A stretch of 64,000 bases of DNA, taken from contig JBMNIF010000002.1 of assembly GCA_050950765.1 (NCBI GenBank), forward strand, positions 192,001-256,000, given 5' to 3'. Positions within the stretch are counted from its first letter, which is position 1. Each line of letters begins with the position of its first letter. The translations under genes and the position numbers were made by a program. Below are positions 2,673-63,732 of this stretch, in pieces. Under the pieces are notes generated by a model, which saw only the letters and a program-made list of their open reading frames with translations, did no database searches and was not told the origin of the DNA. The DNA comes from Bdellovibrionota bacterium (lineage in GTDB: Bacteria; Bdellovibrionota_C; UBA2361; JAAYZI01).

Positions 2673-2830
2673 CTAGTGCCACCCTTTAGGAACGATTGAA
2701 CGGGCTGATACTACAGAACGAAGTCAGCTAGGTTTTTACGGAGGTAAAAAAACCGCCCTTTAGGGACAACAGAACGGGCTGCAACTGCAGAACGAAGTCG
2801 GCTAGGTTTCTACGGAGGTAAAAAATTTGG
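2673..2830 (+). repeat. Modular GGTGCCACCC repeat array, locus 1 left (2 copies of the ~75-79 bp A module)
   Basis: Two copies of ...CCCTTTAGG-AC-A--GAACGGGCTG--ACT-CAGAACGAAGTC-GCTAGGTTT-TACGGAGGTAAAAAA. Confidence 0.9.
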
Positions 2831-2939
2831 ATTAAATATTATAAAAGGAGTGAGTGGCGATAGTATCGCAGTAAAACCATTCTAGGATTAACCTCGTGGG
2901 TAGTAGTAGGTTTCATTCACTCATCCTTAAAGAGCCTTA

Positions 2940-2968
2940 CTCGGGCAGATTTGTAAAACCTGCCCGAG
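2940..2968. terminator. GC-rich hairpin downstream of the orphan ORF
   Basis: CTCGGGCAG...CTGCCCGAG inverted repeat about 35 bp past the stop at 3002; no U-tract. Confidence 0.5.
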
Positions 2969-3001
2969 ATTGACGGCGCTTAATCCTTAAGACACCTAAA
3001 T

Positions 3002-3382
3002 CTAAGGTAGGCTCAGGATCTGTCTCACTGTCGTCAAGGTCGTATCCTTGACGAAAAGAGAATACGCCTTGCGAAGTTCAGGCAAAATGTCTTCGGAGCA
3101 CCAGGGGTCCCATAATTTCAATTCAAGAACAATGCCGCCAAGTCCATTGTAGAAATCGATCGTTTTATTCTCTTTATCGAAGATAAACTTGCTCGCGGGG
3201 ATCGAGTCAATCCATACTTTTTCCTGGCTCCAGCAGTGCAGACGGATTTGAAGGATACCATCCTTACGATAGAAAACTTCCCTGAATTCGAATTCGACGT
3301 TTGGGTTCCACTTTTTCAGTCGAGCCAACTCCATCTCCAGTAAGTCCCAAAGGAACTGTCTGAACGCGCAGAATAACGACAT
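3002..3382 (-). CDS. Orphan hypothetical protein (126 aa) bracketed by repeat arrays
   Basis: Strong RBS AAGGAG before ATG 3382 (MSLFCAFRQF...); downstream hairpin; no recognisable family. Confidence 0.7.
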   Translation of the reverse strand: MSLFCAFRQFLWDLLEMELARLKKWNPNVEFEFREVFYRKDGILQIRLHCWSQEKVWIDSIPASKFIFDKENKTIDFYNGLGGIVLELKLWDPWCSEDILPELRKAYSLFVKDTTLTTVRQILSLP

Positions 3383-3586
3383 AGCTATTCTCCTTATAGT
3401 AAGGAAGTGATATGAAAATCTACTACAATAGATTTCCAAAGAAACCTGCTACTTATAATAGATTTTCAAAGAACGTTGGTGCGAGATAAGCTGCACAAAT
3501 TGTGCGGCACCGATTATCATCGCCACTCGTATAACGAATCGTAAAGTGATTATATTTTGATTCAGATAAGATTAGGAGGAACGATT

Positions 3587-3999
3587 GCCCTTCAGGTAAA
3601 AAATTTGGTGCCACCCTTTAGGGCTGCTAATGCCCTAAAATTAGAATAGCTAATAATATTAAGATGTTAGTAAGAGTTAGTATTTGGCAGCTTTAGTGCC
3701 GCCCACTAAGGACAACAGAACGGGCTGCAACTACAGAACGAAGTCAGCTAGGTTTTGACGGAGGTTAAAAAAACCACCCTTTAGGGACAACAGAACGGGC
3801 TGCAACTACAGAACGAAGTCAGCTAGGTTTTGACGGAGGTAAAAAAACCACCCTTTAGGGATGATTGAGCGGGCACAACTAAAAAACAAAATCAGCTAGA
3901 TCTCTACGGAGGTAAAAAATTTGGTGCCACCCTTCAGGGCTGATTGAGCGGGCTGATACTAAAAAGTGGAATTAGCTAGATCTTTACGGAGGTTAAAAA
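3587..3999 (+). repeat. Modular repeat array, locus 1 right (B/IHF module plus 4 A modules)
   Basis: Full cores at 3605 and 3921, variant cores near 3696, 3774 and 3848; near-identical ~75 bp units starting 3711 and 3786. Confidence 0.9.
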
Positions 4000-4011
4000 G
4001 TGCAACTTTAC

Positions 4012-5322
4012 TTAGTCACCCTTCTCTGTTTTACTTCCACGCCAGTAGCGTAAGCGCTCGCCGATCATCTTTTCGTATCCGCGATCTGTCGGCTCATAAA
4101 AACGCAACTTGGCAAACTTTTCCGGAAGATATGTAACACCCCTAGCATAGCCGTCCTTTTCATCGTGCGGATACTGATACCCTTCTGAATACCCGATCTC
4201 TTTCATCAGTTTTGTCGGTGCATTTCTAAGATGAAGTGGCACATCTATCTTTGATTCATGCTTAATCACGTCACAAACTTTAATCATCGCTAGATAGCTG
4301 CGATTAGATTTAGGGGCACAAGCTAGATACGTTACGCATTGCGCAATAACCTCACGCCCCTCCGGCATACCCAACTTTTCAAAAGCATCAAACGTAGCCA
4401 CCGCCACCTGCAACGCCCTTGGATCGGCATTACCGATATCCTCACTGGCAAAAACCACCATCCTGCGAATCAGAAAACGCGGGTCTTCTCCAGCTTGCAA
4501 CATCCAGAAAGCATAAAAAAGCGCCGCATCAGGGTCTGAACCACGCAAACTCTTAATAAATGCCGAGATAGTGTTGTAGTGTTCTTCACCTGCACGATCG
4601 TAAAATTTACTTCCAGCTTCATGTAAAAACTTTCGTATTATTTCAGCGGATACAACACCTTTAATTTTCGGATTAGCCTCTTTAAAGCCCTCTATAAAGT
4701 TCAGCAACCTTCTGGCATCACCACCAACAACAGTGCTGAAGATGTTTAGAGCCTCTTCTGAAAATTGGATCTGCACCTCTCTTGCTGCATTAAGGGCGAT
4801 CCGTTTTAAAGATTCCTCTGTAAGTGCGGGGAACGTCAAAACCTTCATGCGTGAACGTAGCGCCCCTGTCAGATAAAACGACGGATTTTCAGTAGTAGCA
4901 CCGATTAAGATTATTGTGCCTTTTTCAATATGCGGTAAAAACGCATCTTGCTGCCCTTTATTAAAGCGATGAATTTCATCAACAAAGAGGATGGTTCGTT
5001 TTTTTGATGATTGCGCCGTTGCTACAATTTCACGCACCTCTTTAACACCACCAAGAACGGCAGAGAACTCAACGAAATTACAGTCGTAAGACCTCCCTAC
5101 CAACTTAGCGAAGGTGGTTTTACCACACCCAGGGGGACCCCATAAGACCAAAGAAGGCGGATTCCCTCGTCCTGACTTTAACTGCGTAAGTAAATTTCTA
5201 TCGATCCCCTCCAACCCCTGAAAATCATCCCATGTATGCGGACGCAACTTATCGGCTAAAGGTTGATACACCCTCGATTCCGATTGATTATCGTCAGTAA
5301 AAAGGCTTAACGTTTCAGTCAT
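4012..5322 (-). CDS. rarA: Replication-associated recombination protein A (RarA/MgsA AAA+ ATPase)
   Basis: PLADKLRP, GPPGCGKTT, FVDEIHRFNKGQQDAFLP, SAFIKSLRGSDPDAA, VPLHLRNAPT. Confidence 0.97.
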   Translation of the reverse strand: MTETLSLFTDDNQSESRVYQPLADKLRPHTWDDFQGLEGIDRNLLTQLKSGRGNPPSLVLWGPPGCGKTTFAKLVGRSYDCNFVEFSAVLGGVKEVREIVATAQSSKKRTILFVDEIHRFNKGQQDAFLPHIEKGTIILIGATTENPSFYLTGALRSRMKVLTFPALTEESLKRIALNAAREVQIQFSEEALNIFSTVVGGDARRLLNFIEGFKEANPKIKGVVSAEIIRKFLHEAGSKFYDRAGEEHYNTISAFIKSLRGSDPDAALFYAFWMLQAGEDPRFLIRRMVVFASEDIGNADPRALQVAVATFDAFEKLGMPEGREVIAQCVTYLACAPKSNRSYLAMIKVCDVIKHESKIDVPLHLRNAPTKLMKEIGYSEGYQYPHDEKDGYARGVTYLPEKFAKLRFYEPTDRGYEKMIGERLRYWRGSKTEKGD

Positions 5323-5343
5323 GATCGTTTTTCACTAAAAGTC

Positions 5344-6720
5344 CTACACCGTCGGTTCTGAAAATCGTGATAAGATCCTCACAGAGTACTCAAACCCCCA
5401 GCGTAACTGTCTTAAAGAGAAAGATTCATTAGGCGCATGAATATTATCTTCCTCCAAACCAAAACCAACCAATAAAGGCACGGCACCCGTAGTCTGTACC
5501 AAATCCGTGATAATTGGAATGCTGGCTCCTTCCCACTCTGCAACGGGCTCTCTACCGAAGATCTCTTCTAAGATCTCCCACGCATCTTGCACTACTTTTG
5601 CGTCCTGCAAGCACTGCACAGCTTTACTGCCGTGCTCAAACTGTTTAACACTTAAAGTAAAACCTTCCGGAGTGTGATCCTTTAAATACTTCTCAATGCA
5701 GCTGAACACCGCCGCTGGATCTTGCTGCGGCACCAAACGCGCACTTAACTTCGCCTTTGCAGCAGCCGGAATGATCGTTTTTATCCCTTCACCTTGATAG
5801 CCAGCACTAATCCCAACGATATCTAAACTCGGACGCACACCGTTACGAACTTTCGGTGGAAACCTAAGCTCCCCACCAAGTGGCGGAAGACCCGTCTCTT
5901 TTTGATACTCTTCAGCATCAAACGGACTTTTTGCAATCATATCAAGTAGTTCCTGAGTCGGCTCTTCAACATCAGCATAAAATCCAGGCACAGCGATACT
6001 ACCATCTGCATTAAATAATCTCGCTAAAAGCTTAGCTAACTCTGTTGCAGGATTTTTTACAATTCCACCGTGAACCCCCGAATGCAGATCTCTTTTTAAG
6101 CCACCAAGATTCACCTCAAAAGCGATAAGTCCACGCAGCCCCACTACAACAGCAGGCACCTCTTCAGAAGCTAAACTTGTATCCATCGCCATTAACACAT
6201 CTGCTTGCAACCACTCCTTCCACTCTGGAAGAGAGGTCTGCAATCCGCCGCTACCACTCTCTTCTTCGCCTTCTAATAAAATAGTCAACGAGCATTTCAG
6301 TTTTTCAGCGGCGATCATCGCTCCCACTGCATGAATAAATGCGGTAACCTGCCCCTTATCATCATGAGCACCCCGTGCATAGATCCTATCCCCTCTCTGA
6401 ATCGGTTCAAACGGATCACTATGCCACTCTTCCAATGGATCGGCAGGTTGCACATCGTAATGTCCGTAAAATATAACGTGCGGTCTATCAGGCTCTCCTT
6501 TAAAAGTGCCGCAAGCAACAGGATGACCTGAAGTTTCAAGGAGACTCGTTGTTAACCCTATCTCCTGCAACCTTTTGCAAAGCCATTCTGCACACGCTCT
6601 ACAATCCTCAGCGTGTTCCGGCTGTACCCCGATAGTTGGAAAACGCAAAAACTCATTCAAAAATTGCACCAACTGATCCTCTGTCTCAGAAAAAGTCAAC
6701 TCAATCTCTTCTTTCTTCAT
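5344..6720 (-). CDS. M20 family metallopeptidase (dipeptidase/ArgE/DapE-like)
   Basis: YGHYDVQP, ARGAHDDKGQ, EGEEESGS, DLHSG, IHAPNE. Confidence 0.92.
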   Translation of the reverse strand: MKKEEIELTFSETEDQLVQFLNEFLRFPTIGVQPEHAEDCRACAEWLCKRLQEIGLTTSLLETSGHPVACGTFKGEPDRPHVIFYGHYDVQPADPLEEWHSDPFEPIQRGDRIYARGAHDDKGQVTAFIHAVGAMIAAEKLKCSLTILLEGEEESGSGGLQTSLPEWKEWLQADVLMAMDTSLASEEVPAVVVGLRGLIAFEVNLGGLKRDLHSGVHGGIVKNPATELAKLLARLFNADGSIAVPGFYADVEEPTQELLDMIAKSPFDAEEYQKETGLPPLGGELRFPPKVRNGVRPSLDIVGISAGYQGEGIKTIIPAAAKAKLSARLVPQQDPAAVFSCIEKYLKDHTPEGFTLSVKQFEHGSKAVQCLQDAKVVQDAWEILEEIFGREPVAEWEGASIPIITDLVQTTGAVPLLVGFGLEEDNIHAPNESFSLRQLRWGFEYSVRILSRFSEPTV

Positions 6721-7086
6721 AGCTCTCCATCAAGTACACAATATTTCTGCTTTATCCTCCGATTAGGAACAAAAAACACCTTTTGCGCAAGCCTTTTTTA
6801 ATATGACTCCTTGCACTCTTAACTTTAGCAAGCGATACTATACCCACTTCAAAGCTTGTTTTTACGTCAGAATCAAAAGGATCTCTCCTTTACTCTCCGT
6901 CGTGCACAATAAGGATGCTTCAACAGGGGGTAAAAAAGATGAGTTGTGAACGACGTAAGAATAGTGATGAGATGTTTTTTATGTTGCAAAACAACAGCTG
7001 CGTTGTAACAATTTTTCCTCTCGAATGAGAGACGATAAATTGTTACAGTGGGAAAAATAGTTTTATAATCAACGGAATCGATAACA

Positions 7087-7623
7087 ATGAAGAGATATTT
7101 TCCATCAATTAAAACCTTACTTTTAGTCTTAAGCACAGTTTGCTTTTTAGCAGCCTGTTCTTCAACAGATAGTGGTAAAGCCACAGATGAGTTCGGGAAT
7201 CCGCTCTCAGAATCAAATCTTAATGCAGAGCGTGAAGGACGTTATGCAGGTGGCGCTATTCCATTAGCTGAAGATGGTGGCATGTTCAGAGATATAAATT
7301 TCGGATATGACTCCTCAGCCATTGATGATTTAGGACGTCAAAATCTTGAGCAAAACGTTCAAGTATTGCAATCAAATCCTAATATTCGGGTGCAGCTTGA
7401 AGGTCATTGCGATGAGCGTGGGACAGCAGAATACAATTTAGCTTTAGGCTCTCGCCGTGCGCAAGCAGTTTATGACCTTTTAATTTCTTACGGAATTCCT
7501 GCTTCCAGACTTGAAACCATCAGTTACGGTGAAGAAGTTCCGTTAGATCCTGCCTCTAACGAAATGGCATGGGCAAGAAACAGACGTGTCCATTTCTCAG
7601 CATTTACAACACCCCAAAGGTAG
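7087..7623 (+). CDS. pal: Peptidoglycan-associated lipoprotein Pal (OmpA-like domain)
   Basis: Lipobox LAAC; EGHCDERGTAEYNLALGSRRA; ISYGEE; NRRV. Confidence 0.93.
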   Translation: MKRYFPSIKTLLLVLSTVCFLAACSSTDSGKATDEFGNPLSESNLNAEREGRYAGGAIPLAEDGGMFRDINFGYDSSAIDDLGRQNLEQNVQVLQSNPNIRVQLEGHCDERGTAEYNLALGSRRAQAVYDLLISYGIPASRLETISYGEEVPLDPASNEMAWARNRRVHFSAFTTPQR

Positions 7624-7631
7624 TTGCTAAC

Positions 7632-7663
7632 AGTATGGCTGGTGCGCTAGCACCAGCCATACT
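7632..7663. terminator. Perfect 14-bp stem hairpin between convergent genes
   Basis: AGTATGGCTGGTGC-GCTA-GCACCAGCCATACT. Confidence 0.65.
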
Positions 7664-7686
7664 AACTCCAGATCAATCTCCCCCCC

Positions 7687-8424
7687 CTACAAATATAAAT
7701 TCCCTACTGGCCACGTCTCGACTGAATCAATTAGGTAGATATGCTCATTGTAAAATTGATGTAATGAAAAGTTTGCCATGCGGGGGCAGCGTGGAGGGAG
7801 ACCGTGCTGCGTTACATTCACAACAGAAAGTTGCTTAACCCTTAAACGATAAAAGGTTGCAGTGCTTGCTTTCTTACGGGGCAATTTATCCTTAAGATCT
7901 TTTAAAACTTTATTATCATCACTCCATAAACAAACACTTTTCACAAAACGGTTTATCCCTCTAATCTTTTCCAGCGAAGTCGACTGAAACGAAAGGTCTC
8001 CCCCACTCATACTATTTACAAGTAAACGGTACTCATCAAAAGTAATTGCACCCCCCACAAAATCACAACCCCCTCTACTAAATTTTCCTTGCGGGAGGAA
8101 CATAAGATCAAGATCGAAGGAGTCACTACTTAGAACTGCATGATGCTCGTAAGATCCATCTTTATGGAGATATTCCGTAAAATCTTCAGATAAGTGCGTC
8201 GCTGTTTTAGGAGAAGAAAAAGAAGATATAAAAACACCGAGCGCAACAAGCGCAAGTCCTACAACGGAAACGATATAAACTTGATAGAGCGTCCCTGAAG
8301 TGGCTGCCGAACTATTCCTTCTTAACCGTATTGAATCACTTGAGGGTGTAAGCTTTTCCTCTATACAGGCGGGACATAAGCGCGTCGCACTTCCTCGCTT
8401 AGACCCGCAATTATAACATCCCAT
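7687..8424 (-). CDS. Hypothetical membrane-anchored protein with N-terminal CxxC..CxxC ribbon
   Basis: CYNC and CPAC, then one hydrophobic helix; RBS AAGGAAG. Confidence 0.7.
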   Translation of the reverse strand: MGCYNCGSKRGSATRLCPACIEEKLTPSSDSIRLRRNSSAATSGTLYQVYIVSVVGLALVALGVFISSFSSPKTATHLSEDFTEYLHKDGSYEHHAVLSSDSFDLDLMFLPQGKFSRGGCDFVGGAITFDEYRLLVNSMSGGDLSFQSTSLEKIRGINRFVKSVCLWSDDNKVLKDLKDKLPRKKASTATFYRLRVKQLSVVNVTQHGLPPRCPRMANFSLHQFYNEHIYLIDSVETWPVGNLYL

Positions 8425-8511
8425 CTGTTCTTCCTTTAATAACCGTACCTACACCGTTAAGAGAAAAATTTTTCGCTCCCCTTCTCTTACTCCTAAACAC
8501 TTCTAAGCACA

Positions 8512-9669
8512 TTAAACGATCTCTATCTCTTCTAACGGCAAGGTGAATAAAAACTTCGTGCCCTTAGCGATCTGACTACTTACTGTAATAGTTCCGTAAT
8601 GCAGCTCCACAATCTGTTTTACAACAGATAAGCCGATACCCGTGCCTTCACATTTTTTTTCAGCATCTTGTCCTCTTCTAAACATAACGAAGAGGTCGTT
8701 TAATTCCTCTTTCGGAATTCCTGGCCCGTTATCCTCAACATAGAACTCACAGAAATGCCCCAAGCTACGCAGCAACGCTTCCCCTTGCCCGATATTAATT
8801 ACAATGGTCTCTTTATCATTATATTTAACAGCATTATTGATTAAATTAATAAAAACCTTACGCAAAAGTGGCGCATTACCCCAGACCTGTGACAAGTTTG
8901 AAATATTGATCTGTATATCTAGATCAGATTGGAAATTAAGATCTTGTACTACTTCATCAACAAGCTGCCCTAAATCAAGCATCTCCATCTTGGCAGCCTT
9001 AGCACCGATCTTGGCAAACTCATACATCGATTGCACAACACTAAGTAATCGTTTTGAAGCTTCAAAAGTGCTTGTTAATAACTTGGCAAGCCTCTCATCA
9101 ACATCATCTTTATAAACGTCACAGATATACTCCAACTTCATATTAATACCGCCGAGAGGGCCGCGAATGTCGTGCGCTACCGTTCCGCTAAAATCATCAA
9201 GACGTTTATTTTGATCGGAAAGTAAACAATTAGCCTCCGTCAATTTTGCTATCAATTTAGCATTTTCTCTTTCAAGTCTACGAATCCGTAAAAGATGACG
9301 CACAGCCGGAGCAAGCTCATCCAGCCAACGACCTTCTTTTACAATACAACGGTGACACCCTGCATTATAAACAGTAGCTAAAACATACGGATCAACAGAG
9401 CGTGAAGTGACTAAAACAGAAGGCTCTGTATCCTTTAATTTCATCTCTACAAGAAGTTCAACACCACTAATAGATCTTAAAGTTTGTTCTAAAATGACAA
9501 CATCGTAATCTGTGATATCAACGGCTTTTCTAAAATCGACAAGGGAGCGCACCGCTTCAACATCAGCAAACGGCAGCTGCTTAGTTAAAACCGCCTGACT
9601 TTGAACAATCTCATCTCCATCATCAAAGATTAAGATCTTAGGTCGTTCTATCTGTTCCTGCGCTTCCAT
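8512..9669 (-). CDS. Receiver-domain / histidine kinase hybrid (REC-HisKA-HATPase)
   Basis: ILIFDD receiver start; VAHDIRGPL H-box; NLINNAVKY, DNGPGI, GTGIGL. Confidence 0.9.
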   Translation of the reverse strand: MEAQEQIERPKILIFDDGDEIVQSQAVLTKQLPFADVEAVRSLVDFRKAVDITDYDVVILEQTLRSISGVELLVEMKLKDTEPSVLVTSRSVDPYVLATVYNAGCHRCIVKEGRWLDELAPAVRHLLRIRRLERENAKLIAKLTEANCLLSDQNKRLDDFSGTVAHDIRGPLGGINMKLEYICDVYKDDVDERLAKLLTSTFEASKRLLSVVQSMYEFAKIGAKAAKMEMLDLGQLVDEVVQDLNFQSDLDIQINISNLSQVWGNAPLLRKVFINLINNAVKYNDKETIVINIGQGEALLRSLGHFCEFYVEDNGPGIPKEELNDLFVMFRRGQDAEKKCEGTGIGLSVVKQIVELHYGTITVSSQIAKGTKFLFTLPLEEIEIV

Positions 9670-9697
9670 TTTTTGATTTTTTTATCTTATGCTGTTT

Positions 9698-10450
9698 TTA
9701 TCTCATGGCATTGCGCAGATAGTTCTTCAAACGAATCAAAGCTCTGGATCTAATCTGTGAAGCTCTTGATTCCGTAACCCCTAAAATTTCTCCGATCTCT
9801 TTGAGGTTTAATTCTTCATAGAAATATAAGCTGATAACCAGCCTCTCCTTTTCCGGCAACCTATCAAGCGCTCTGGCAATCAAACTGACTTTTTCACTAC
9901 TTAAGAGATTTTTTAACGGATCTTGCGACGTTGAGGCTAATGTTTCATGCGCTTTAAACCGTTCTTCACCGTGACCAAACCCCAACTCTTCAAAACTCAA
10001 CATCACGATAGAACCAACTTCACCAAGCAATTTGCGCAACTCTTCGAGCTCCATACCGAGCTCTTCCGCCACCTCATCATCCGTAGCGGGGCGACCTAGC
10101 TTCTGTTCGATCACTTGATAAGCCTCTTCTAACTTATGCGATTTAAAGCGCAAAGAGCGTGGCATCCAATCTTGAGAGCGAAAACTGTCCAAAATTGCAC
10201 CACGTATGCGAAATTGTGCATAGGTAGAGAAGTTAGTTTCATGCTTCGGATCGTACTTCTGCAGAGCATCCACCAAGCCGATAATGCCTGAATTTAGCAT
10301 CTCTTTTAGATCAATATCCTTCGGCAACCGTCCTGACAGACGATGAACAACCTTTCTAACAAGAGGTAAATAACTTTTGATGAGATCTTCTTTCTCATGA
10401 TCGTCAATACTCTTGTATGCTTCAACCGCACTGCGTTTAATTTTGCCCAC
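9698..10450 (-). CDS. fliA: Flagellar sigma factor sigma28 (FliA/WhiG)
   Basis: FSTYAQFRIRGAILD..R..DWMPRS; EELNLKEIGEILGVTESRASQI. Confidence 0.95.
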   Translation of the reverse strand: MGKIKRSAVEAYKSIDDHEKEDLIKSYLPLVRKVVHRLSGRLPKDIDLKEMLNSGIIGLVDALQKYDPKHETNFSTYAQFRIRGAILDSFRSQDWMPRSLRFKSHKLEEAYQVIEQKLGRPATDDEVAEELGMELEELRKLLGEVGSIVMLSFEELGFGHGEERFKAHETLASTSQDPLKNLLSSEKVSLIARALDRLPEKERLVISLYFYEELNLKEIGEILGVTESRASQIRSRALIRLKNYLRNAMR

Positions 10451-10703
10451 TCTCCATCTCCTCGTAAACTGTCAAAACTTTGGTTGCAATCCACTGGAAG
10501 ATGCGTACTACAACGTACACAATCAATGAATCAAACGTGATATATAAAATCTGATATTCCATGGCAGCTTCGGTACTTAAGACACAAACTGTTATCACAA
10601 GAAAAGAAAGTACTATCAGCGCTGCCGCCAACTTATTGACGTAAATCTCAGCTAAGTTTTTCTTTTTTATCACGCTCGTTCTAACAGCCATATTCCGCCG
10701 CAT
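10437..10703 (-). CDS. Small two-TM hypothetical protein coupled between flhG and fliA
   Basis: Overlaps both neighbours; two hydrophobic segments; start may be ATG about 5 codons downstream. Confidence 0.6.
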   Translation of the reverse strand: MRRNMAVRTSVIKKKNLAEIYVNKLAAALIVLSFLVITVCVLSTEAAMEYQILYITFDSLIVYVVVRIFQWIATKVLTVYEEMESGQN

Positions 10704-11553
10704 CCATTAATTCTCTAAAGAAGAATTGCATTCCTCCTTTGACTCGTCTGGTATAAAAATCCAGATCCAACTTCTCCGCTACCTTTACAAACCCCATTGA
10801 AGCTTGACTACTTGGAAAAAGATCCAACAAAGCACGTTGTTCTGAAATAGCAGTCGGAATAGCAGAATCCGTCAATACAGCTCCGAGATAACACAACTTT
10901 ACATGCAAGAATCGTTCAACAGCTCTAGCAAGACGCAAATAAGCACCTTTTCCAACGCTTTCGCTCTGTACATTATTTGCCACAATTGAGATCTCTTTCT
11001 CCCCGTACTCCTGTGCCAAGACCTTTATCAAGGCATAAGCATCCGTTAATGAAGTCGGTTCAGCCGTGATCACACAGATAATTTCAGAAGCAGCGCTATT
11101 AAAATACATTACGTCGGGACCAATACCGGCTTGCGTATCAACAAGTAAGTAATCAAAGCAGGCGGTTGCTTCTTCAATCCTATCTATTAGTAATAAACGT
11201 TGTTCTGGTGTAAGTCCGGCTGCTAAAGGAGTCCCGCTGGTCGCTGGTATAATAACGATCCCATCTGGGCCATCAAGCATAGTATCTTCGAGAGTAAGCC
11301 GCCCATCTACAACATCTTGTAATGTTGCTTTAGGTTTAAGCCCTAACATCACGTTGATATTAGCTAAACTCAGATCAGCATCTAAGATAGCAACGCTCCG
11401 TCCCATCCGTGCCAAAGCTAAACCGCAATTAACACTGATATGAGTTTTACCGACACCACCTTTGCCACTAGTAATGCTAACAACACGTGTTACGCCTTGT
11501 TTGTGTCTCTGGTCTTTTTTTATGTTTAAGCTCGTTCCGTACATATAAAACAC
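10681..11553 (-). CDS. flhG: FlhG/FleN MinD-family ATPase
   Basis: ITSGKGGVGKT deviant Walker A, DADLSLANI, EPTSLTDAYALIK; flagellar context. Confidence 0.92.
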   Translation of the reverse strand: MFYMYGTSLNIKKDQRHKQGVTRVVSITSGKGGVGKTHISVNCGLALARMGRSVAILDADLSLANINVMLGLKPKATLQDVVDGRLTLEDTMLDGPDGIVIIPATSGTPLAAGLTPEQRLLLIDRIEEATACFDYLLVDTQAGIGPDVMYFNSAASEIICVITAEPTSLTDAYALIKVLAQEYGEKEISIVANNVQSESVGKGAYLRLARAVERFLHVKLCYLGAVLTDSAIPTAISEQRALLDLFPSSQASMGFVKVAEKLDLDFYTRRVKGGMQFFFRELMDAAEYGC

Positions 11554-11685
11554 CCAAAAGTTTAGATTACATAAGAGCTAATAAGTTCCATAAAATTTTC
11601 ACTTATTAGAGATAAAATTTTTAAAAATCACTTTTTCTTTAGCGCCACCTCTCTCAACTCTTCAAAATCACTCTAAAAAACCTTA

Positions 11686-13782
11686 TTATTGCGCTTCCAG
11701 CGCCAACACTCCCATTGACTTAACCTTTGTCCCTGCAGCTATCTCTTGATGACTAATAACCGCATAACCAGGAACAAATCGATCAACAAAATTAAACAAA
11801 GCCGCACGCAAATTTGCCGACACAAGTAGTAGCGGTGTTTGCCCCAACTCTGAAAAACGCTCCATCATCTTATTTAACTTTGAAATCAGAACTTGTGCGC
11901 GTGCTGGATCTAAGGCTAAAAATGAACCTTCATCACTCTGCTGCAAATTATCATTCAGGTACCGTTCAACACTGGGATTAAGACTAGCTAGAGGTAGCAC
12001 CCCCTCGTCACTAACGTATTTAGCTGTAATGGAACGCGCTAAACGGCGTCTTACTAACTCCGCCAAACGCTCCGGTTGTTTTATGGTCGGTGCCCAATCA
12101 GCCAAAGTTTCTAAAATAGTTCTTAAATCTTTGATACTGATCTGTTCACGTAATAAACGGCATAAAACGTGTTGTACCTGCCCGAGTGTCATCAAGTTAG
12201 GAATAAGCTCTTCAATAACTTTCGGGAATTGTCCGCCTAAAGTATCTAACAGGTGTTGCACCTCCTGCCGCCCTAACAGTTCGTGCATATTATTTTTGAT
12301 TAATTCTGTAACGTGCGTGGTAACTATCGTTGAAGGATCAACTACCGTATAACCAGAAAATTGAGCACGCTCTTTTTCAGATTCATGAATCCACAACGCA
12401 TCCAACCCAAAAGCAGGCTCCTTAGTTGGAATACCTTGAATCGGTGCCGTAACACTACCTGGATCCATAGCTAAAAGATAATGCGGCTTTAATTCACCTT
12501 CTCCGATAGCAGCACCTTTTAACATAAAGCGATATTCACTCGGTGAAAGTCTGACATTATCTCTGATATGAATAGCTGGTAAAATAAAGCCGTAATCCAA
12601 AGCAAATTGCCGCCTGATAGAACGAATTCTATCAACCAATCCGCCCGTTTCAACTAATGAAACCAACTCATAACCGACCTCTAATTCTAAAGTGTCAACA
12701 CCAAGTAGTCCGCTCACCTCTTCAGTGCTACCTGGTTTCGGTGTATTATCTGCTTCCTGAGCTCTTTCAAGCTCCTGCATCTTCTTATCTGTTACCGCTT
12801 TTACTTCAGCACGTCGTCTGAAAAGCGCTATCGCACCCGTAGCAGCACTTAAAGTAATAAAGGGCAGGAACGGCAAGCCTGGTACGATCGCCAAACCGGC
12901 ACATGTTGCTGCTGCAATCCAAAGTGGTCTAGAAGATGATGTTAATTGAGAGATCACTTCAGTACCAAGGTCATCTCCACTTGAAGCAGCACGTGCTACA
13001 ATCATACCGGCTGCAGTAGAAACAACGATTGAAGGGATCTGCGCCACTAAACCATCACCGATAGTGAGCAAGGTGTATGTTTCTGCGGCGATCTTCCAAT
13101 CCATTCCTTTAAAAACGATACCGATTATCAAACCACCAACGATATTGATTCCTGTTAAGATCAACCCCGCTATGGCATCACCGGAAACGAATTTAGCAGC
13201 ACCATCCATTGATCCGTAAAACTCCGATTCCATCTGTAATTCTTTGCGCTTCTGCTTAGCTTCTGCTTCGTTAATAAGCCCTGCATTTAAATCGGAATCT
13301 ATCGCCATCTGTTTTCCTGGCATCGCATCCAAAGTGAATCTAGCAGCGACCTCTGCAATACGGGTAGCACCTTTTGTAATAACTTTTAAATTAACGATAT
13401 TAATTGCGATGAATACAACGATACCGACTACAAAACTTCCACCGACTACGAAATTCGCAAAGGCTTGAATAACAGTACCAGCTGCCGCCGTTCCCGTATC
13501 TCCGTAGAGTAAGATCAATCTCGTAGTGGCAACGTTCATACCCAATCGGAAAAGGGTTGTAACCAATAAGATGGCAGGAAATGAAGAGAACTCTGAAACT
13601 CTATTTTTAAAAAGGGCGGCAAACAAGATAACCAGAGAGATCGTTAAGTTTAAGGCGATACAGATATCTAATAACGGTGTCGGAACAGGTAGCAATAAGA
13701 TAGTCAAGATAAAGACTATTAAGATAGGAACAGATGCGCTAACCCAAAAATTACCTTTTGTTTTAATCTTAACAGCCATCAA
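11686..13782 (-). CDS. flhA: Flagellar export gate protein FlhA
   Basis: RIAEVAARFTLDAMPGKQMAIDSDL, FYGSMDGAAKFV, LTIGDGLV, EPAFGL. Confidence 0.97.
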   Translation of the reverse strand: MMAVKIKTKGNFWVSASVPILIVFILTILLLPVPTPLLDICIALNLTISLVILFAALFKNRVSEFSSFPAILLVTTLFRLGMNVATTRLILLYGDTGTAAAGTVIQAFANFVVGGSFVVGIVVFIAINIVNLKVITKGATRIAEVAARFTLDAMPGKQMAIDSDLNAGLINEAEAKQKRKELQMESEFYGSMDGAAKFVSGDAIAGLILTGINIVGGLIIGIVFKGMDWKIAAETYTLLTIGDGLVAQIPSIVVSTAAGMIVARAASSGDDLGTEVISQLTSSSRPLWIAAATCAGLAIVPGLPFLPFITLSAATGAIALFRRRAEVKAVTDKKMQELERAQEADNTPKPGSTEEVSGLLGVDTLELEVGYELVSLVETGGLVDRIRSIRRQFALDYGFILPAIHIRDNVRLSPSEYRFMLKGAAIGEGELKPHYLLAMDPGSVTAPIQGIPTKEPAFGLDALWIHESEKERAQFSGYTVVDPSTIVTTHVTELIKNNMHELLGRQEVQHLLDTLGGQFPKVIEELIPNLMTLGQVQHVLCRLLREQISIKDLRTILETLADWAPTIKQPERLAELVRRRLARSITAKYVSDEGVLPLASLNPSVERYLNDNLQQSDEGSFLALDPARAQVLISKLNKMMERFSELGQTPLLLVSANLRAALFNFVDRFVPGYAVISHQEIAAGTKVKSMGVLALEAQ

Positions 13783-13817
13783 AACCTCTTAAAAAATCAA
13801 CACCATCCCAAAACACT

Positions 13818-14918
13818 TTAACGTCCCTGCCCCTGTTGCAGATAACGATACGGATTGCGCAACTTGTAAACATAAGCCAGAACTTCTGCTACCGCCTTAA
13901 AGAGTTCGTGTGGAATTTCACGCCCCACCTCAACAGAAGCGTATAAAGCACGCGCTAGCGGTTTCCTCTCTAAAACAGGAACTCCTGCTTTTCGCGCTAG
14001 CTCTCTTATCCTTAACGCCATAAAGCCACGTCCTTTGGCAACTACCGTCGGTGCACGCATAACGGCGCGATCGTATTTCAGTGCTACTGCATAATGAGTC
14101 GGGTTCGTCACAACGACATCAGCTTGCGGTACACTTCGCGCAATACGATTCATAATTCTTTGCAAGCCTTTCCTACGCATCAACTGTTTTGTGCGCTCAT
14201 CACCCTCTACTGATTTACGCTCATCTTTAACTTCATCTTTTGTCATACGGTTTTTTTTGAGCCACTGTCTTTTTGTCCAGACAAAATCCCAAACAGCCAG
14301 TACGATCATGACGTACAGCACTTTCCAGAAGATATCTGACATGGCAGTGCCGATAAATTTTAGAACTGCGCTGACACTAAGATGAATCAATGCCACCATA
14401 TCGGGAGCGTATGAAACTAAAGCGTAATATCCGATAGGCAAAATGATAGCGATCTTTAAAACTCCAGTTAAAACATTCATCATAGAGGTAGCAGAAAAGA
14501 TCCTTTTTATGCCGTTAATCGGATTCAGATACAGCATCTTAAATTTTATTAAGCCCTCTTTGACGTTAAATTTCGTTTGAATTAAAACGGCAAAACTCGC
14601 TACAAAAGCTACTGCTAAAAAAAGTATAAGGAGGATCCAACCTATCTCCTTAATTATCATTGAAAGAATTTGTATTATCCCCTGCACTTCAAGAGCTTCA
14701 GAAGTCATAGAGATCATACCGTAGACTCGGATTATAATATTTTGAAAACCGGCGAAGAGGTTGCCACACAACATAGCCAAGATCCAAAACCCCACAAAGA
14801 GAGAGCTAACCTTTGCAACCTCTTGTGAAACGTGGATCGCCCCTTCCTTACGTAATTCTTCGATACGCTTACTGGTAGGGTCTTCAGTTTTTTCTGCGTC
14901 GTCTCTATCTCCTGCCAT
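13818..14918 (-). CDS. flhB: Flagellar export protein FlhB
   Basis: EKTEDPT N-terminus; NPTH autocleavage motif; PLARALY; AVAEVLAYVY. Confidence 0.96.
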   Translation of the reverse strand: MAGDRDDAEKTEDPTSKRIEELRKEGAIHVSQEVAKVSSLFVGFWILAMLCGNLFAGFQNIIIRVYGMISMTSEALEVQGIIQILSMIIKEIGWILLILFLAVAFVASFAVLIQTKFNVKEGLIKFKMLYLNPINGIKRIFSATSMMNVLTGVLKIAIILPIGYYALVSYAPDMVALIHLSVSAVLKFIGTAMSDIFWKVLYVMIVLAVWDFVWTKRQWLKKNRMTKDEVKDERKSVEGDERTKQLMRRKGLQRIMNRIARSVPQADVVVTNPTHYAVALKYDRAVMRAPTVVAKGRGFMALRIRELARKAGVPVLERKPLARALYASVEVGREIPHELFKAVAEVLAYVYKLRNPYRYLQQGQGR

Positions 14919-15011
14919 TTCCGAGAAGCTCTAGTAATAATCTCTAAACAAGCCGTTTAGTAATTTAAACGACTATCAAAAAAGGGATCCTTCCCCTTCG
15001 CTTAAAGGTTG

Positions 15012-15029
15012 AAGCAAAAGTCAGACCAA
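15012..15029 (-). promoter_or_regulatory. sigma54 (-24/-12) promoter of the flhB operon
   Basis: Minus strand TTGGTCTGACTTTTGCTT = GG-N10-GC, about 95 bp upstream of flhB. Confidence 0.65.
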
Positions 15030-15112
15030 CCCAAAAACTTCTCTTTGCATTGATAACATCTTGGAATAACTAGCTAATTCTAGGCAGTAGAAATGACTAC
15101 TAAGGGCGATCA

Positions 15113-15130
15113 GTGTCAAAAAGTAGACAC
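15113..15130. promoter_or_regulatory. Candidate enhancer (FleQ/FlrA-type activator) site
   Basis: GTGTCAAAAAGTAGACAC palindrome (GTC-N8-GAC); the same form occurs upstream of motA. Confidence 0.5.
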
Positions 15131-15776
15131 CTTTAAATCTTCTCACTTCTTTTATAAAAATTAAGAGAGGTTAACGGCGTAACGAACGCCGTATTACAAA
15201 GTGCATTAAGGATACTTCTATTTTTCCTTGTAGCCATATTTTAAGAGTTGAAATAATAAATTGTTTGCGAAGCAACTTTAGAAACACCTTTGTTAAAAGA
15301 ACAAATACTCACGAAGCAATCTTAGAAACGGCTCTGTTAAAAGAAAAAATGCTTATGAAAGGTATTCTCACCCCTTTTTCAATCAGAATATGAACGGGGA
15401 GTATTGATCGCTTACACTTAAAACCTTATAAGCACCAAACCTAGCGCACAACGGGCACGATAAAAGTTTTTTCGTTTTCATATTTTGAGGAGTTTCAACC
15501 TCAACAATAGAAATAGAAGTTTTAGCTCTGTTAAGCGTGGTCGTAGATATAACCGCACGGTTCAGGTTCAGGTCAAAACCTTAATAATAGAAGCAAAAGT
15601 TTTAAGGGTATTTTTCGGACATTTTTTGTTACATAAAAAAGGATAATTCTTTACGTATAGGTTCATAAGTATTTTTCAGACATTTTTCGTTACATAAAAA
15701 AGGCTTAATTTATGTATTTTTGTTTTTTTTGCAGCAACATAATAGAATATGTGGAGTTGTATTTTTAAGGATTTTT

Positions 15777-16895
15777 ATGAATCGTTATAAACTTATCAAG
15801 GCTGATTCCAATGCCCGCTGTGGAGAATTTACCACAAAGAGCGGCTCGTTTGAAACGCCTAACTTTATGCCTGTTGCCACACGAGGATCTGTTAAAGGGG
15901 TTGATACAGATCGCTTAAAGGAGTGCGGGGCGCAAATTATGCTCGTTAATACGTATCACCTCTGGCTCCGTCCGAGTAGTGAGACTATCAACAGAGTCGG
16001 TGGAATTCACCGTTTTACAGATTGGGATGGCCCGATTTTAAGTGACAGTGGTGGATTTCAAGTTTACAGTTTAAAGGATATCCGTTCTCTTTCAGATGAG
16101 GGTGTTGAGTTCCGTTCACACCTTGACGGTTCAAAATATTTTCTCACTCCAGAAAAATCGATTCAAATTCAGGAGGAGCTAGGCGTTGATATTGCGATGG
16201 TACTAGATGAGTGTCCAGCAGGTGATATGCCCTTAGAGCAACTTTCAAAATCGTTAGACATGACACTCCGTTGGGCAAAGAGGTCTTTAGAAGCTAGGCG
16301 TAATCCACAAACTGCCATCTTTGGAATTACACAAGGTGGCGGGAATAGAGAGCTACGAACGAAAGCTGCCGCCACACTTTCTGAACTTGATTTTGACGGC
16401 ATGGCGATCGGTGGCTTAAGTGTTGGAGAGTCAAAAGAGATTATGTATGATGTTTTGAGTTATCACGTTAACCAACTTCCTCAACATAAGATTCGTTATC
16501 TCATGGGCGTTGGCACAACAGAAGATATCGTTGAAGGGGTAAGGAACGGAGTAGATCTCTTTGATTGCGTTATGCCGACGCGCGCGGGACGTTTTGGACG
16601 TGCTTATGTTAATGGAGAGAAACCGTATATTAATATGCGTAATTCCGTCCACAAATTAGATCCGAATCCCGTCGATTCGACCTGCAACTGTTTGTGTTGC
16701 AAGAAATATTCGCGTGCCTATCTACACCATCTTTTTCATGTAGGTGAGATGCTTGGACCTCAACTTTTAAGTATCCACAACCTTACGCACTACCTCTCTT
16801 TAATGAAGAGGATTAGAGAAGCCATTCAGGAACAACGCTTTGAAGACCTCTACAACGCTGAAAAAAACAGATGGCAGGGGGTCTCTAACAGATGA
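15777..16895 (+). CDS. tgt: tRNA-guanine transglycosylase
   Basis: TPNFMPVAT, NTYHL, DSGGFQV, RYLMGVG, DLFDCVMPTR, CNCLCC zinc site. Confidence 0.97.
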   Translation: MNRYKLIKADSNARCGEFTTKSGSFETPNFMPVATRGSVKGVDTDRLKECGAQIMLVNTYHLWLRPSSETINRVGGIHRFTDWDGPILSDSGGFQVYSLKDIRSLSDEGVEFRSHLDGSKYFLTPEKSIQIQEELGVDIAMVLDECPAGDMPLEQLSKSLDMTLRWAKRSLEARRNPQTAIFGITQGGGNRELRTKAAATLSELDFDGMAIGGLSVGESKEIMYDVLSYHVNQLPQHKIRYLMGVGTTEDIVEGVRNGVDLFDCVMPTRAGRFGRAYVNGEKPYINMRNSVHKLDPNPVDSTCNCLCCKKYSRAYLHHLFHVGEMLGPQLLSIHNLTHYLSLMKRIREAIQEQRFEDLYNAEKNRWQGVSNR

Positions 16896-17407
16896 AGAAG
16901 GTACTACTCTTTTTTATGTTTTTCTTCTGTCTCTCTTCTGCGGCAGCAGAAGAACACCCTGTAACACTCAAAATAATCTCTGACTACACAACAGATTCAG
17001 AAGAGTGTCGTTTAGGAGTTCTTTTTGAGATAAAGGATGGTTGGTATATCTACTGGAAGGAGCCAGGTGAGACGGGGCTTCCGACAAAGATTGATATTAA
17101 ACTTAAAAACGGTTCTGCTTCCGCTCTACACTATCCGATTCCTAAAACATTTAAACAGGCAGGAATTTTTACCTCGTACGGCTATGAAAAAAGAGTTTTA
17201 CTGTGGTTCGATTTAAAAGGTGTTTCTAAAAACAGTGAAGTTAGTCTACTTGTTGATTGGCTAGCCTGCGGCACGGATCTCTGTATACCTGGAAAGCAGC
17301 TACTAAAAACAGAGCTTTCCCCCACCCTTTCAGAGACATCTTCAAAAGATCTCTTTAACCTTTGGGAGAAGAAGCTACCAAAAGATCCCCTTAGATATCA
17401 TCCGTAA
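16892..17407 (+). CDS. Stand-alone DsbD N-terminal-type thiol:disulfide domain protein (exported)
   Basis: Signal peptide; GWYIYWKEPGETGLPT; WLACGTDLCIP. Confidence 0.85.
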   Translation: MKKVLLFFMFFFCLSSAAAEEHPVTLKIISDYTTDSEECRLGVLFEIKDGWYIYWKEPGETGLPTKIDIKLKNGSASALHYPIPKTFKQAGIFTSYGYEKRVLLWFDLKGVSKNSEVSLLVDWLACGTDLCIPGKQLLKTELSPTLSETSSKDLFNLWEKKLPKDPLRYHP

Positions 17408-17428
17408 AATTGGTTGCAGTGCTATTCT

Positions 17429-17821
17429 ACTAGTGACGATTGGGCACCTTTCGGGGACAACTAAACGGGCTACTACTAAAAAACGGATCAGCTAGCTGTT
17501 TACGGTGACGATCGAGCGGGCTGAAACAGAAAAAGGGATCAGCTAGATGTTTACGAAGGTAAAAAATTTGGTGCCACCCACTAGGGACAACTGAACGGGC
17601 TGCAACTACAAAACGGATCAGCTAGATGTTTACGAAGGTTAAAAAATTGGTGCCACCCACTAGGGACAACTGAACGGGCTGCTACTAAAAAACGGATCAG
17701 CTAGATCTCTACGGAGGTCAAAAATTTGGTGCCACCCACTAGTGACGATTGAACGGGCTGCTACTAAAAAACGGATCAGCTAGATTTTTACGGAGGTAAA
17801 AAATTTGGTGCCACTCACTAG
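17429..17821 (+). repeat. Modular repeat array, locus 2 left (79-bp period A modules)
   Basis: TTGGTGCCAC cores at 17568, 17647, 17726 and 17805 (exactly 79 bp apart) plus two degenerate upstream units. Confidence 0.95.
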
Positions 17822-17855
17822 AGTTAGAAAAGTATTCCTAAGATAGTGAGTGGCA
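17809..17855. terminator. Hairpin formed by the last repeat core and its inverted copy
   Basis: TGCCACTCACTA ... TAGTGAGTGGCA, 12-bp perfect stem just downstream of the minus-strand ORF. Confidence 0.5.
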
Positions 17856-17882
17856 ACAAAAAAAGTGTTCTACACTAAGCCG

Positions 17883-18089
17883 TTATAAAGACTTTGAAAA
17901 AAAGTTATCATCATCGCTTACAGTCGGCTCTGTTGCTTTTTTAGAGGGTAACGTAACTCCTTCATAAATATCTCCTTTCTTTCCCGCTGTTACATTATTT
18001 CCCTTAACGGCGGCTCCTGCTCCTGCTGTCTGTGCTGCTGTACGTGGAACTCCTGTTTTCACTGGATCTTGAGCAATCCCTGTTCCCAT
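17883..18089 (-). CDS. Orphan 68-aa Ala/Gly/Thr/Lys-rich protein bracketed by repeat arrays
   Basis: RBS-like AGGTAGGGA before ATG; AT-rich upstream region; downstream hairpin. Confidence 0.6.
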   Translation of the reverse strand: MGTGIAQDPVKTGVPRTAAQTAGAGAAVKGNNVTAGKKGDIYEGVTLPSKKATEPTVSDDDNFFSKSL

Positions 18090-18289
18090 ATTTCCCTACC
18101 TTTTTTATCTATAAAATTAATTAAAACTAGCAAAGTATTATTAAAAATACGCTAAGACTAAATAATATAATTAGCACGGCTAACGGCAGTTAACTATAAA
18201 GTGCTTACCGACCGCGCTTTGCGCACCTGTTATAATATAGTGCGTGCCCGTGATTCTGCTAAAAATTTCAAAACTAAGCAAATTTTAGT

Positions 18290-18668
18290 AGTGCCACCCT
18301 CCTGTAAGACGGTTTAAGTGGTAAAAATTTAGCCCTTCAGGGAGAGCAGAACGGGGTGTAACTAAAAATCGAGCGGAAATTTGGTGCCACCCACCAACGC
18401 TAAAAGCCAATGCTAAAAAACTTTAAAATTACGATAGCTAATAATATCAATATATTAGCAAAAGCTTAAAATCTGGCAGTTTTGGTGCCACCCTTCTTTT
18501 TTGCCGCTTTGACGGCTTGGGCGACTGGATGAATTTGGTGCCACCCACCAGTTTGGGCAGATCTAGCAGATTTAGCTGGGCTTGGATCTGGTGCCACCCA
18601 CTAGGGACGATTGAACGGGCTGCAACTACAAATCGAATCAGTTAGGTCTGGACGAAGGTAAAAAATTT
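18290..18668 (+). repeat. Modular repeat array, locus 2 right (mixed A, B/IHF, C, D modules)
   Basis: Cores at 18291, 18381, 18482, 18535 and 18589; inter-core modules recur at 62726-63730. Confidence 0.9.
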
Positions 18669-62695: not shown

Positions 62696-62725
62696 CCTCT
62701 TCCTCCCCTCCCCTCCGAGCTTTTT

Positions 62726-63236
62726 AGTGCCACCCTTCAGCTTTGCCGCTTTGACGGGCTTGGATCTGGTGCCACCCTTCAGCTAAAAGTGGGTGTCCTA
62801 ATTAGGATCTAATAATATCAAGACGTTAGCAAAAGCCTACATTTGGCGGTTTTGGTTTGGCGGTTTTGGTGCCACCCTTCAGTAAGACGGGATCTGACGG
62901 ATTTGGCTGGGGGTGGATCTGGTGCCACCCACTAGGGACAGTAGAACGGGCTTCCACTGCAAAGCGAATCGGTTAGGTTTGAATGAAGGTCAAAAACTAA
63001 TAATATCAAGACGTTAGCAAAAGCTTAGCATTTGGCGGTTTTGGTGCCACCCACCAGTCGGTTAGGTTTTCACGGAGGTTTGGCGGTTTTGGTGCCACCC
63101 TTCAGTAAGACCGGATCTGACGGATTTGGCTGGGGTTGGATCTGGTGCCACCCTTCAGTTACAGCAGGACGGGTACAACTGCAGAGCGAATCGGCTAGGT
63201 CTGGACGGAGGTTAGAAATTTGGTGCCACCCACCAG
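62726..63236 (+). repeat. Modular repeat array, locus 3 left
   Basis: Eight GTGCCACCC cores (near 62728, 62767, 62866, 62920, 63041, 63089, 63143, 63220) separated by D, B, C and A modules. Confidence 0.92.
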
Positions 63237-63423
63237 TAAGAAGACCCCTCCCCTTGTATAATTTCGGGGGAGTTTAGGTTTTAAAGCTTCGCTTTCGTGG
63301 TTGGTGGCGTTAATTTAGAGGGCTTAAAACCTTTTTAAAACGTCAAAGAACTAAAAATTTTATTTTTTTGGTTAAAACTTATATCAAATGTGTCAAGTTT
63401 GTTTTGCGAAAGCCTTTCTCCTG

Positions 63424-63730: not shown

Positions 63731-63732
63731 GA

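Follow-up and report, generated by a model that had tools for sequence, protein, structure and literature searches.

Arrays built on the terminal repeat of a Y1 transposase element, and rare copies of host DNA beside them, in a genome of the Bdellovibrionota

Do arrays of short direct repeats capture the small orphan genes that lie between them? The question is raised by a stretch of 64,000 nt (hereafter the window) from a member of the Bdellovibrionota (GenBank assembly GCA_050950765.1, contig JBMNIF010000002.1, positions 192,001 to 256,000 of the forward strand), in which the same layout, an array of repeats, an insert and a second array, occurs at three loci, two of the inserts carrying an orphan open reading frame (ORF). 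The initial annotation of the window had described the three layouts, all of which were confirmed, and had proposed that the arrays capture or exchange self-contained expression units in the manner of integron cassettes. We found that the repeated core is the terminal inverted repeat (TIR) of a small TIRtron-like element encoding an HUH/Y1 transposase, and that host DNA has indeed been copied into or beside the arrays, both locally and at distant loci, while an exchange of whole cassettes is unsupported genome-wide. Positions outside the window are given on C1, C2 or C3 of this genome (G000).

In the window, the core (TGGTGCCACCC) was scored on the + strand allowing up to two mismatches. In the whole 2.64-Mb genome, the 9-mer GTGCCACCC has 1,025 copies in 135 clusters, against about 6 expected, and the exact 13-mer core has 922 copies (control, 0); once merged, the repeat family amounts to 170 blocks that cover 80 kb, or 3.0% of the genome, with YTGGTGCCACCCWYYAG as core consensus. 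The arrays are made of head-to-tail units, each consisting of a core and a module, which lie mostly on one strand and mainly after the 3' ends of genes, with a preference for convergent gaps (76 of 170 blocks, compared with 357 of 2,269 gene pairs genome-wide). There are 905 units between successive same-strand cores, with recurring modules chiefly of 79-bp, 53-bp and 88-bp types. A CRISPR array was rejected because unit sizes are uneven (19-237 bp) and the commonest units are found again in up to 36 arrays. Unit pairs at least 95% identical make up 24% of those within arrays and 0.1% of those between arrays, and arrays less than 3 kb apart share their strand in 26 cases and differ in 9, a trend that is absent beyond 3 kb.

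The 88-bp module type holds a consensus (WATCAANNNNTTR) like that of integration host factor (IHF), whose density is sevenfold higher in the arrays (134 in 80 kb) than in other intergenic DNA (94 in 407 kb). In the window alone, where the initial annotation had placed IHF modules, the consensus shows no excess over chance (7 occurrences, 5.7 expected). Unique DNA that begins at a core, noted in the same annotation, was also seen, but is a common edge of arrays in the genome (edges of 94 blocks) that faces ordinary genes as well. Neither Rfam families nor tRNAs were found in the window.

A gap of 1,346 bp that recurs between cores contains a 322-aa ORF, of which six full copies and one 3' fragment are present at different loci. 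The six copies of the element are 1,404-1,406 bp long, share 98-99% DNA identity, and have a perfect 12-bp TIR in 6 of 6 cases. Since every copy spans from CTGGTGCCACCC at its start to GGGTGGCACCAG at its end, the core of the arrays is the TIR of this small HUH/Y1 transposase element. No recombinase had been seen in the window, and the cognate transposase of the arrays is indeed located elsewhere in the genome. Among the copies, variable codons are synonymous in 15 cases and non-synonymous in 3, and the transposase gene is intact, was copied recently and is under purifying selection.

The protein scores 29.8 against Pfam Y1_Tnp (PF01797; cut-off 23) and 67.4 against NCBIfam NF047646 (REP-associated tyrosine transposase, RAYT), where the cut-off of 80 is not reached. 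It contains the motifs MSNHFH, YIYINP and WEGCSS, with 60 residues between HuH and Y, and residues H61, H63, Y121 and N125 are invariant across 128 sequences. The predicted structure (pLDDT 94) has E. coli TnpA-REP (4ER8) as its top structural match, with a TM-score of 0.76 by target; Foldseek matches below E 0.001 span only the transposase core, and the helical tail is conserved within the family. No C-terminal helix-turn-helix (HTH) domain (Bac_DnaA_C, HTH_23, HTH_28) was matched in Pfam at E up to 1.

Homologues of the transposase occur in 36 of 40 relatives, many of them bounded by inverted repeats of their own, which lie some 50-290 bp ahead of the gene and 150-480 bp behind it and often start with CTGG or TGG. 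Two relatives have the same core next to homologous genes: in G025 it forms a TIR pair, in G040 it marks the left end. As each of the 40 relatives has 26 or fewer cores, against 922 here, the expansion of the arrays is confined to this lineage. A scan of metagenomes with the transposase as query returned two distant loci. In one relative, G019, 26 copies of the same core lie in small one-directional groups, and a transposase match is absent at E 1e-5 (genome 92% complete).

Some further observations concern the arrays and their enzymes. Arrays with at least two cores are missing from about 350 kb (C2:about 460,000-810,000) around the GC-skew switch, the likely origin. Of the 520 matches to the 79-bp module, 94 are in arrays with no exact core nearby, e.g. 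at C1:65,282, C1:77,167 and C2:794,030, and these core-less or degenerate arrays resemble the 74-bp units at 2743-2830 of the window. DDE insertion sequences (IS) of three kinds are inserted in arrays at five sites, and at least two of the kinds are also found away from arrays. A second HUH/Y1 gene, single-copy and encoding 350 aa (C1:418239-419291), has the motifs NHLH and YVDLNP at a distance of 113, like subclass 2.3, and is bounded by its own motif, GGACACCC. The sequence TAGGACACCCA has 151 copies, of which 131 are within or close to the main arrays, mostly on the other strand (window sites 62791 and 63460), so that the arrays mix the ends of two Y1 enzymes.

Copies of host DNA were sought with the repeats masked, counting near-exact copies. 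Tandem copies of an array's own flanks account for seven events in six arrays, all from the side to which the core points. Three of these flank copies derive from the element's own right end (398, 233 and 61 bp), and three from the host, namely the 3' end of aspS, an intergenic stretch, and 397 bp of the start of a tetratricopeptide repeat (TPR) gene. The last comprises the upstream region and first codons of the TPR gene, and is now a bracketed 91-aa ORF. The junctions lie about 7-15 bp before a core and join unrelated sequences, without long homology.

Host DNA has also been copied over longer distances. The 3' end of a gene for a 331-aa protein has contributed a 104-bp segment to two distant loci, where it lies 3 and 7 bp from cores; only 3.1% of non-coding DNA is as near to an array. 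The donor gene is conserved in 30 of 40 relatives, whose homologues align to residue 316-329, and the direction of the copying is therefore fixed. One distant copy carries along the donor's small array, with degraded cores, and the other has a right-end TIR on one side and an inverted core on the opposite side. The 23 low-copy duplicates of gene sequence in non-coding DNA include 17 local ones away from arrays, two contig overlaps and one distant copy that is not at a core; two of the three distant copies end at cores. Capture of host DNA thus happens, albeit rarely; that it depends on the enzyme is what we infer.

Single genes with arrays on both sides are more frequent than expected: 23 were counted, and permutations with gene orientation and gap length matched gave 5.7 ± 2.2. 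The 23 include the element itself (four cases) and DDE insertion sequences in arrays (five cases); after removal of IS genes, 15 remain against 5.4 ± 2.3 by chance, a count that uses a slightly looser array definition, which admits the orphan ORF1 of locus 1. The enrichment of antisense orphans that the cassette proposal implied is not among the results, in that the 15 genes are balanced with respect to the adjacent cores (7 sense, 8 antisense) and mostly belong to known families (Pfam families in 10 of 15, including aspS, lepA, metE and flgM). Nor can the repeats be regarded as capture sites for aspS and lepA: an upstream neighbour is retained in 26 of 29 relatives for lepA and in 14 of 29 for aspS, and therefore the arrays entered the gaps around resident genes with ancestral neighbours. 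For these two genes this is the outcome that the initial annotation had named as refuting its proposal. Most bracketing (locus 2, aspS, lepA) would likewise reflect colonisation of both gaps of a resident gene, and the excess fits local spreading of the arrays, in keeping with the shared strand of near neighbours and the likeness of units within arrays. No whole host gene duplicated between arrays was seen among the intervals listed, up to 2.6 kb. In the genome, which is 94% complete, the best score for an integron integrase (TIGR02249) is 49.8 bits against a cut-off of 265, and of its three PF00589 genes none is within 30 kb of the loci studied here or of the orphan cluster described below.

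At the lepA locus (C2:1,178,762-1,179,500) the array begins 3 bp past the lepA stop. In 25 of 29 relatives lepA is followed by a gene that sits elsewhere here, at C3:212218, beside a transposase copy. Its sequence motif makes it look like a metallophosphoesterase, and an identity as lepB was dropped on the same motif. Arrays may mark rearrangement breakpoints.

Locus 1, in which four cores were counted on the + strand, is composed as follows.

2673..2830, + strand: TIR-headed unit array, with a near-exact core at 2674 and two 74-bp A-type units, 15 bp past the stop of a zinc-ribbon gene
2832..2975, no strand assigned: 3' frame element of the ORF1 cassette, with four homologues at C2:1,025.5-1,028.9 kb
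3002..3382, - strand: ORF1, a 126-aa orphan with atypical codon use
3383..3586, - strand: ORF1 leader, with a ribosome-binding site (RBS) AAGGAG at 3395-3390 and a promoter-like stretch near 3565-3538
3587..3999, + strand: array in which A-type units accompany an IHF-like module of 88 bp (cores: 3606, 3694 and 3922), stopping 13 bp from the rarA stop

ORF1 is atypical for its host, with a dicodon score of -0.07 (under the host 5th percentile, and still the top of the six frames) and a G+C content at third codon positions (GC3) of 0.60, compared with 0.27-0.42 in the host. The orphan status assigned to both ORFs by the initial annotation was borne out. Among 5.8 billion proteins ORF1 matched only itself, and in 40 relatives there was a single 37-residue match (E 9.5e-4); for ORF1 and for gene d of the orphan cluster, the ESM Atlas gave no usable feature match and only low-confidence models. 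The same annotation had credited both ORFs with antisense orientation, an RBS and a 3' hairpin. Both do lie on the minus strand, with purine-rich sites upstream, and ORF1 is followed by a strong 13-bp stem (2940-2968), but the hairpins 3' of ORF2 are weak (-9.6 kcal over 64 nt). The stem after ORF1, which a terminator scan did not call, reads like what is left of the end of the coding sequence (TNLPE*) of cluster gene d; the promoter-like stretch rests on alignment and was not called by a consensus promoter scan.

The non-coding parts of the ORF1 cassette have relatives 830 kb away, in an orphan cluster (C2:1,025,500-1,029,600) of four small orphan genes set in shared structured frames. The 3' element recurs there four times, at C2:1,025.5-1,028.9 kb, always 3' of a small minus-strand orphan ORF, and a DNA profile of the cluster leaders, built with ORF1 and the cores excluded, had its sole match outside the cluster at 3448-3581 of the window (E 1.1e-5). 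On the basis of this shared leader and 3' element, the ORF1 cassette would be a stray member of the cluster. At the protein level homology appears weak, with YRKDG in common (p about 0.005 by shuffling, for the best of 7) and no significant hhalign result. The cluster genes have no Pfam or Rfam match, and the family was not found in the 40 relatives. Cluster-family proteins from other assemblies are 72-91% identical, against 96-99.8% for neighbouring genes, and the cluster is by this measure probably fast-evolving. Two of the cluster leaders are near-identical although their ORFs differ.

The layout of locus 1 was found again at this independent cluster, which shares the non-coding frame of ORF1: a core, an antisense cassette with its own leader, and a core. 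At C2:1,025.6-1,029.4 kb the order is near-core, antisense cassette, near-core, antisense cassette, core, with core spacings of 757 and 788 bp, compared with 756 bp at locus 1. The four leaders are preceded by one exact core, two one-mismatch cores (a recent duplicate pair) and one two-mismatch core, whose strand is that of the locus 1 cores, and the background rates of such cores among 871 genes with free upstream space are 3.8%, 5.1% and 12.6%. The likeliest carrier of the cassette to locus 1 would be core-to-core copying, a proposal for and against which the chances seem evenly balanced.

As for the history of locus 1, none of 11 rarA loci, covered with about 1.5 kb of flank each, showed the zinc-ribbon gene next to rarA, the closest genome compared belonging to a different genus (RarA 66%). 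A joint that skips 2722-3894 in both second-strain runs does not count as evidence of an empty site, since its short side is 24 letters, all repeat. In strain contigs from 4 of 24 runs, no second-strain pieces or variants fell in 2831-3586 among those listed (40 of 389 variants, 32 of 2,063 pieces). Repeated non-coding frame families that are free of cores occur at C2:625-629 kb, C3:77-79 kb, C2:534-537 kb, and C1:50-52 kb with 346-351 kb.

Locus 2 has nine cores on the + strand and locus 3 has eleven.

17429..17821, + strand: array of 79-bp A units, after a DsbD-N gene
17883..18089, - strand: ORF2, a 68-aa orphan with strongly host-like codon use
18290..18668, + strand: mosaic array, made up of A, 53-bp and IHF-like modules, between the divergent ORF2 and yajC
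62725..63236, + strand: mosaic array after a SpoU/TrmL-type gene, with the second repeat motif GGGTGTCC at 62791
63237..63423, no strand assigned: insert without an ORF, in which 37 bp near the start are 97% identical to C3:464667-464702
63424..63731, + strand: continuation of the array, reaching a convergent gene that ends at 63733

ORF2 is best read as a resident gene. Its dicodon score (0.47) is over the host 95th percentile and its GC3 is 0.23; the protein matched only itself and the leader had no homologue; the region is at single-copy depth in two runs of the second strain, about 1% diverged. Locus 2 had been placed between tgt and yajC; yajC is there, but the gene before the array is the DsbD-N gene, tgt lying one gene further up. 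No ORF2 match was found at 29 yajC loci of relatives, one of which has a DsbD-N gene directly before yajC without ORF2 and another a different gene in the gap. The gap upstream of yajC is thus variable among relatives. A metagenome scan with YajC found no relative. At locus 3, the 37 bp near the start of the insert show weak similarity to DDE insertion sequence ends, and the insert may in part be a remnant of an IS end. Elsewhere in the window, in-frame coding repeats occur at 29582-29824 (three 81-bp units) inside ORF 29067-30212, and at 51106-51685 (about six degenerate units spaced by 66 bp) inside ORF 51054-51941.

How, then, were the arrays and the copies made? We consider it probable, if far from certain, that copying is driven by the transposase and polar, starting from the cores, with local growth of arrays and occasional carriage of host DNA. 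By analogy with the nick-primed amplification outlined for bacterial interspersed mosaic elements (BIMEs; PMC3333891) and the one-ended transposition outlined for IS91 (PMC13181058), the transposase would nick a core at its outer edge in single-stranded DNA; from there, strand transfer or synthesis would proceed in the direction in which the core points and stop at a loosely defined site, the product being joined to another core. The outcome would be an extra unit next door, with local growth and nearby daughter arrays of the same orientation, or more rarely a unit elsewhere, and a copy running beyond the array would take host DNA along.

Several observations weigh against this account. Three of the six polar cases concern the right end of the element, which leaves just three host flanks; under a looser polarity test, seven arrays had downstream matches and two had short upstream ones; and a diverged copy of the 3' end of lepA (its last codons) lies beyond its array, with the opposite polarity. 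Both distant copies come from a single donor, and local duplication is common away from arrays (17 of 18 local cases). Arrays show no bias for the leading or lagging strand (31 vs 39, p 0.40), and none of the 24 commonest module families matches the body of the element at E <0.01. Other frame families, taken as a control, have spread over distant loci of this genome without cores, and therefore the displacement of ORF1 does not require the transposase. Finally, no activity, circles or junction reads were seen in the contigs analysed.

Much of this would be expected if the transposon end had only seeded the cores, the flank copies and the displacement of ORF1 being due to host recombination or slippage at abundant repeats, an explanation that we regard as possible but not as the likely one. 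It is favoured by the array-free local duplications, the core-free frame families and the reversed lepA remnant, as well as by the left junction of one distant copy, which has a few bases of microhomology to the core. It accounts less well for junctions that unite unrelated host sequence so close to a core with no long homology, for the agreement in polarity of all six arrays, and for the two of three distant copies that end at cores. It appears unlikely, on the other hand, that the arrays form a host-domesticated cassette system, with cores acting like attC sites and an enzyme that excises, inserts and swaps orphan expression units. The excess of bracketed single genes with IS genes removed, the antisense orientation of three of the four bracketed genes without a Pfam family, the alternation and regular spacing of cores and antisense cassettes in the orphan cluster, and the divergence of its proteins between assemblies would all suit such a system. 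However, the bracketed genes are balanced in orientation and mostly of known families, the upstream neighbours of lepA and aspS are retained, no whole host gene is duplicated between the listed arrays, an integron integrase is lacking, and three of the four cluster cores are degenerate, two of these being a recent duplicate pair. The integron-like reading of the initial annotation is unsupported in view of the same orientation, family, neighbour and integrase results, and of an ORF2 that looks native.

That the arrays are kept mainly as regulatory or nucleoid elements of the host, such as stabilisers of 3' untranslated regions or IHF sites, the link with the transposase being historical, seems very improbable. 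The preference for convergent gaps and the enrichment in the IHF consensus are what it would predict, but the transposase is intact, was copied recently and is under purifying selection, the expansion is limited to this lineage, and positions after 3' ends are also those that tolerate insertions.

Helitrons reportedly capture genes by means of an HUH enzyme with a fixed start and a leaky stop, so that adjacent DNA is co-mobilised. A bolder extension of transposase-driven copying, which we offer only tentatively, is that the TIR-flanked Y1 transposase is a Helitron-like capture engine, in which about a thousand cores would start polar copies, and fast-evolving small genes would travel on cassettes that have cores at both ends, drive their own expression, and are duplicated and shifted from locus to locus. 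Locus 1 would be one case of this, and the ends of two Y1 enzymes are mixed in the arrays.

Among known systems, TIRtrons or TIRYTs (Di Nocera et al. 2013, PMC3733652), equivalent to TnpA-Y1 subclass 2.1 (Quentin et al. 2018, PMC6006769) and to RAYT group 1 (Bertels et al. 2017, PMC5581495), are the closest in these accounts, as they have a Y1 HUH gene between TIRs that also form a repeat family elsewhere in the genome. The assignment to subclass 2.1 rests on motifs: NHFH, YIYINP, WEGCSS and the distance of 60 agree with the class-2 signature given in PMC6006769 (Y---NP, NH[YF]H, SS tail, 58-67). In contrast to the 'moderately abundant' singles, dimers or groups described for published TIR families, about 920 cores form one-directional mosaic arrays here, on 3% of the genome; six copies at 98-99% contrast with a reported mean of 1.9 copies at 49% in subclass 2.1 and a duplication rate of 6.2% in RAYT group 1. 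The GGGGWSAS motif, described in many though not all TIRs, is absent from the core consensus, and the C-terminal HTH described in all 20 published TIRYTs of the subclass was not detected. By its core motifs and ends the element is a TIRtron, and the undetected HTH, the copy number and the array form make it a variant. No description of host-DNA capture by TIRtrons was found in the literature that was searched, its supplements aside.

The clusters of repetitive extragenic palindromic (REP) sequences, BIMEs and REPINs associated with TnpA-REP (Ton-Hoang et al. 2012, PMC3333891; Bertels and Rainey 2011, PMC3116915) are similar, as described there, in being intergenic mosaics of a conserved motif and variable linkers that are more uniform within than between loci, in having a linker with an IHF site, in being targets of other IS, in forming tandem clusters that include flanking sequence, and in the model of nick-primed local amplification. 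Unlike the canonical REPtrons (RAYT groups 2 and 3), the arrays have no GTAG/GTGG-footed hairpin and no inverted doublets, and their cores are mostly on one strand. In addition, the E. coli REPtron is described as not moving as a unit, whereas six copies of the element exist here, and host coding DNA has been copied at distant loci.

In IS91/ISCR elements, according to the account in PMC13181058, an HUH enzyme with a fixed start and a leaky stop co-mobilises adjacent DNA, and the flank copies would work similarly; IS91 has distinct oriIS and terIS ends and no TIRs, whereas the ends here are identical and inverted. Copies that look like products of polar co-mobilisation of this type are present, with the lepA remnant as one counter-example, and unlike those of IS91 they pile up as arrays. 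The IS91 enzyme has two tyrosines, while the present one is a Y1 enzyme. By these comparisons, the system would work like BIME amplification combined with IS91-type capture. Integron cassettes are likewise single small orphan genes between directly repeated sites, but here there is no integron integrase, the cassettes have long leaders of their own, the sites are transposon ends in arrays, and a single cassette orientation holds only within the orphan cluster and fails genome-wide. No Rfam match was found in the window or in that cluster. Lastly, prochlorosin genes associated with a TnpA-REP of subclass 2.1, for which a diversifying mechanism has been proposed (Laurenceau et al., bioRxiv 10.1101/2020.03.09.984088), are likewise hypervariable small genes in conserved frames tied to the same enzyme subclass, and are the nearest precedent for such a tie; in that account the transposase gene itself faces the variable gene and inverted repeats were not found, whereas in the present genome it is TIR cores, remote from every transposase copy, that provide the link. 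The same authors later noted that the evidence on causation was strong in neither direction.

None of the published accounts that we found works out how TIR-flanked Y1 transposases move, and REP-type enzymes are mainly credited with copying their own repeats. In this genome the enzyme is intact and was copied recently, its 12-bp end is defined, product junctions number in the hundreds, and copies of host DNA beside cores can be dated, which makes the mechanism directly testable in vitro. If the capture is driven by the enzyme, it would provide an integrase-free route to the shuffling of gene fragments and to the spread of orphan families.

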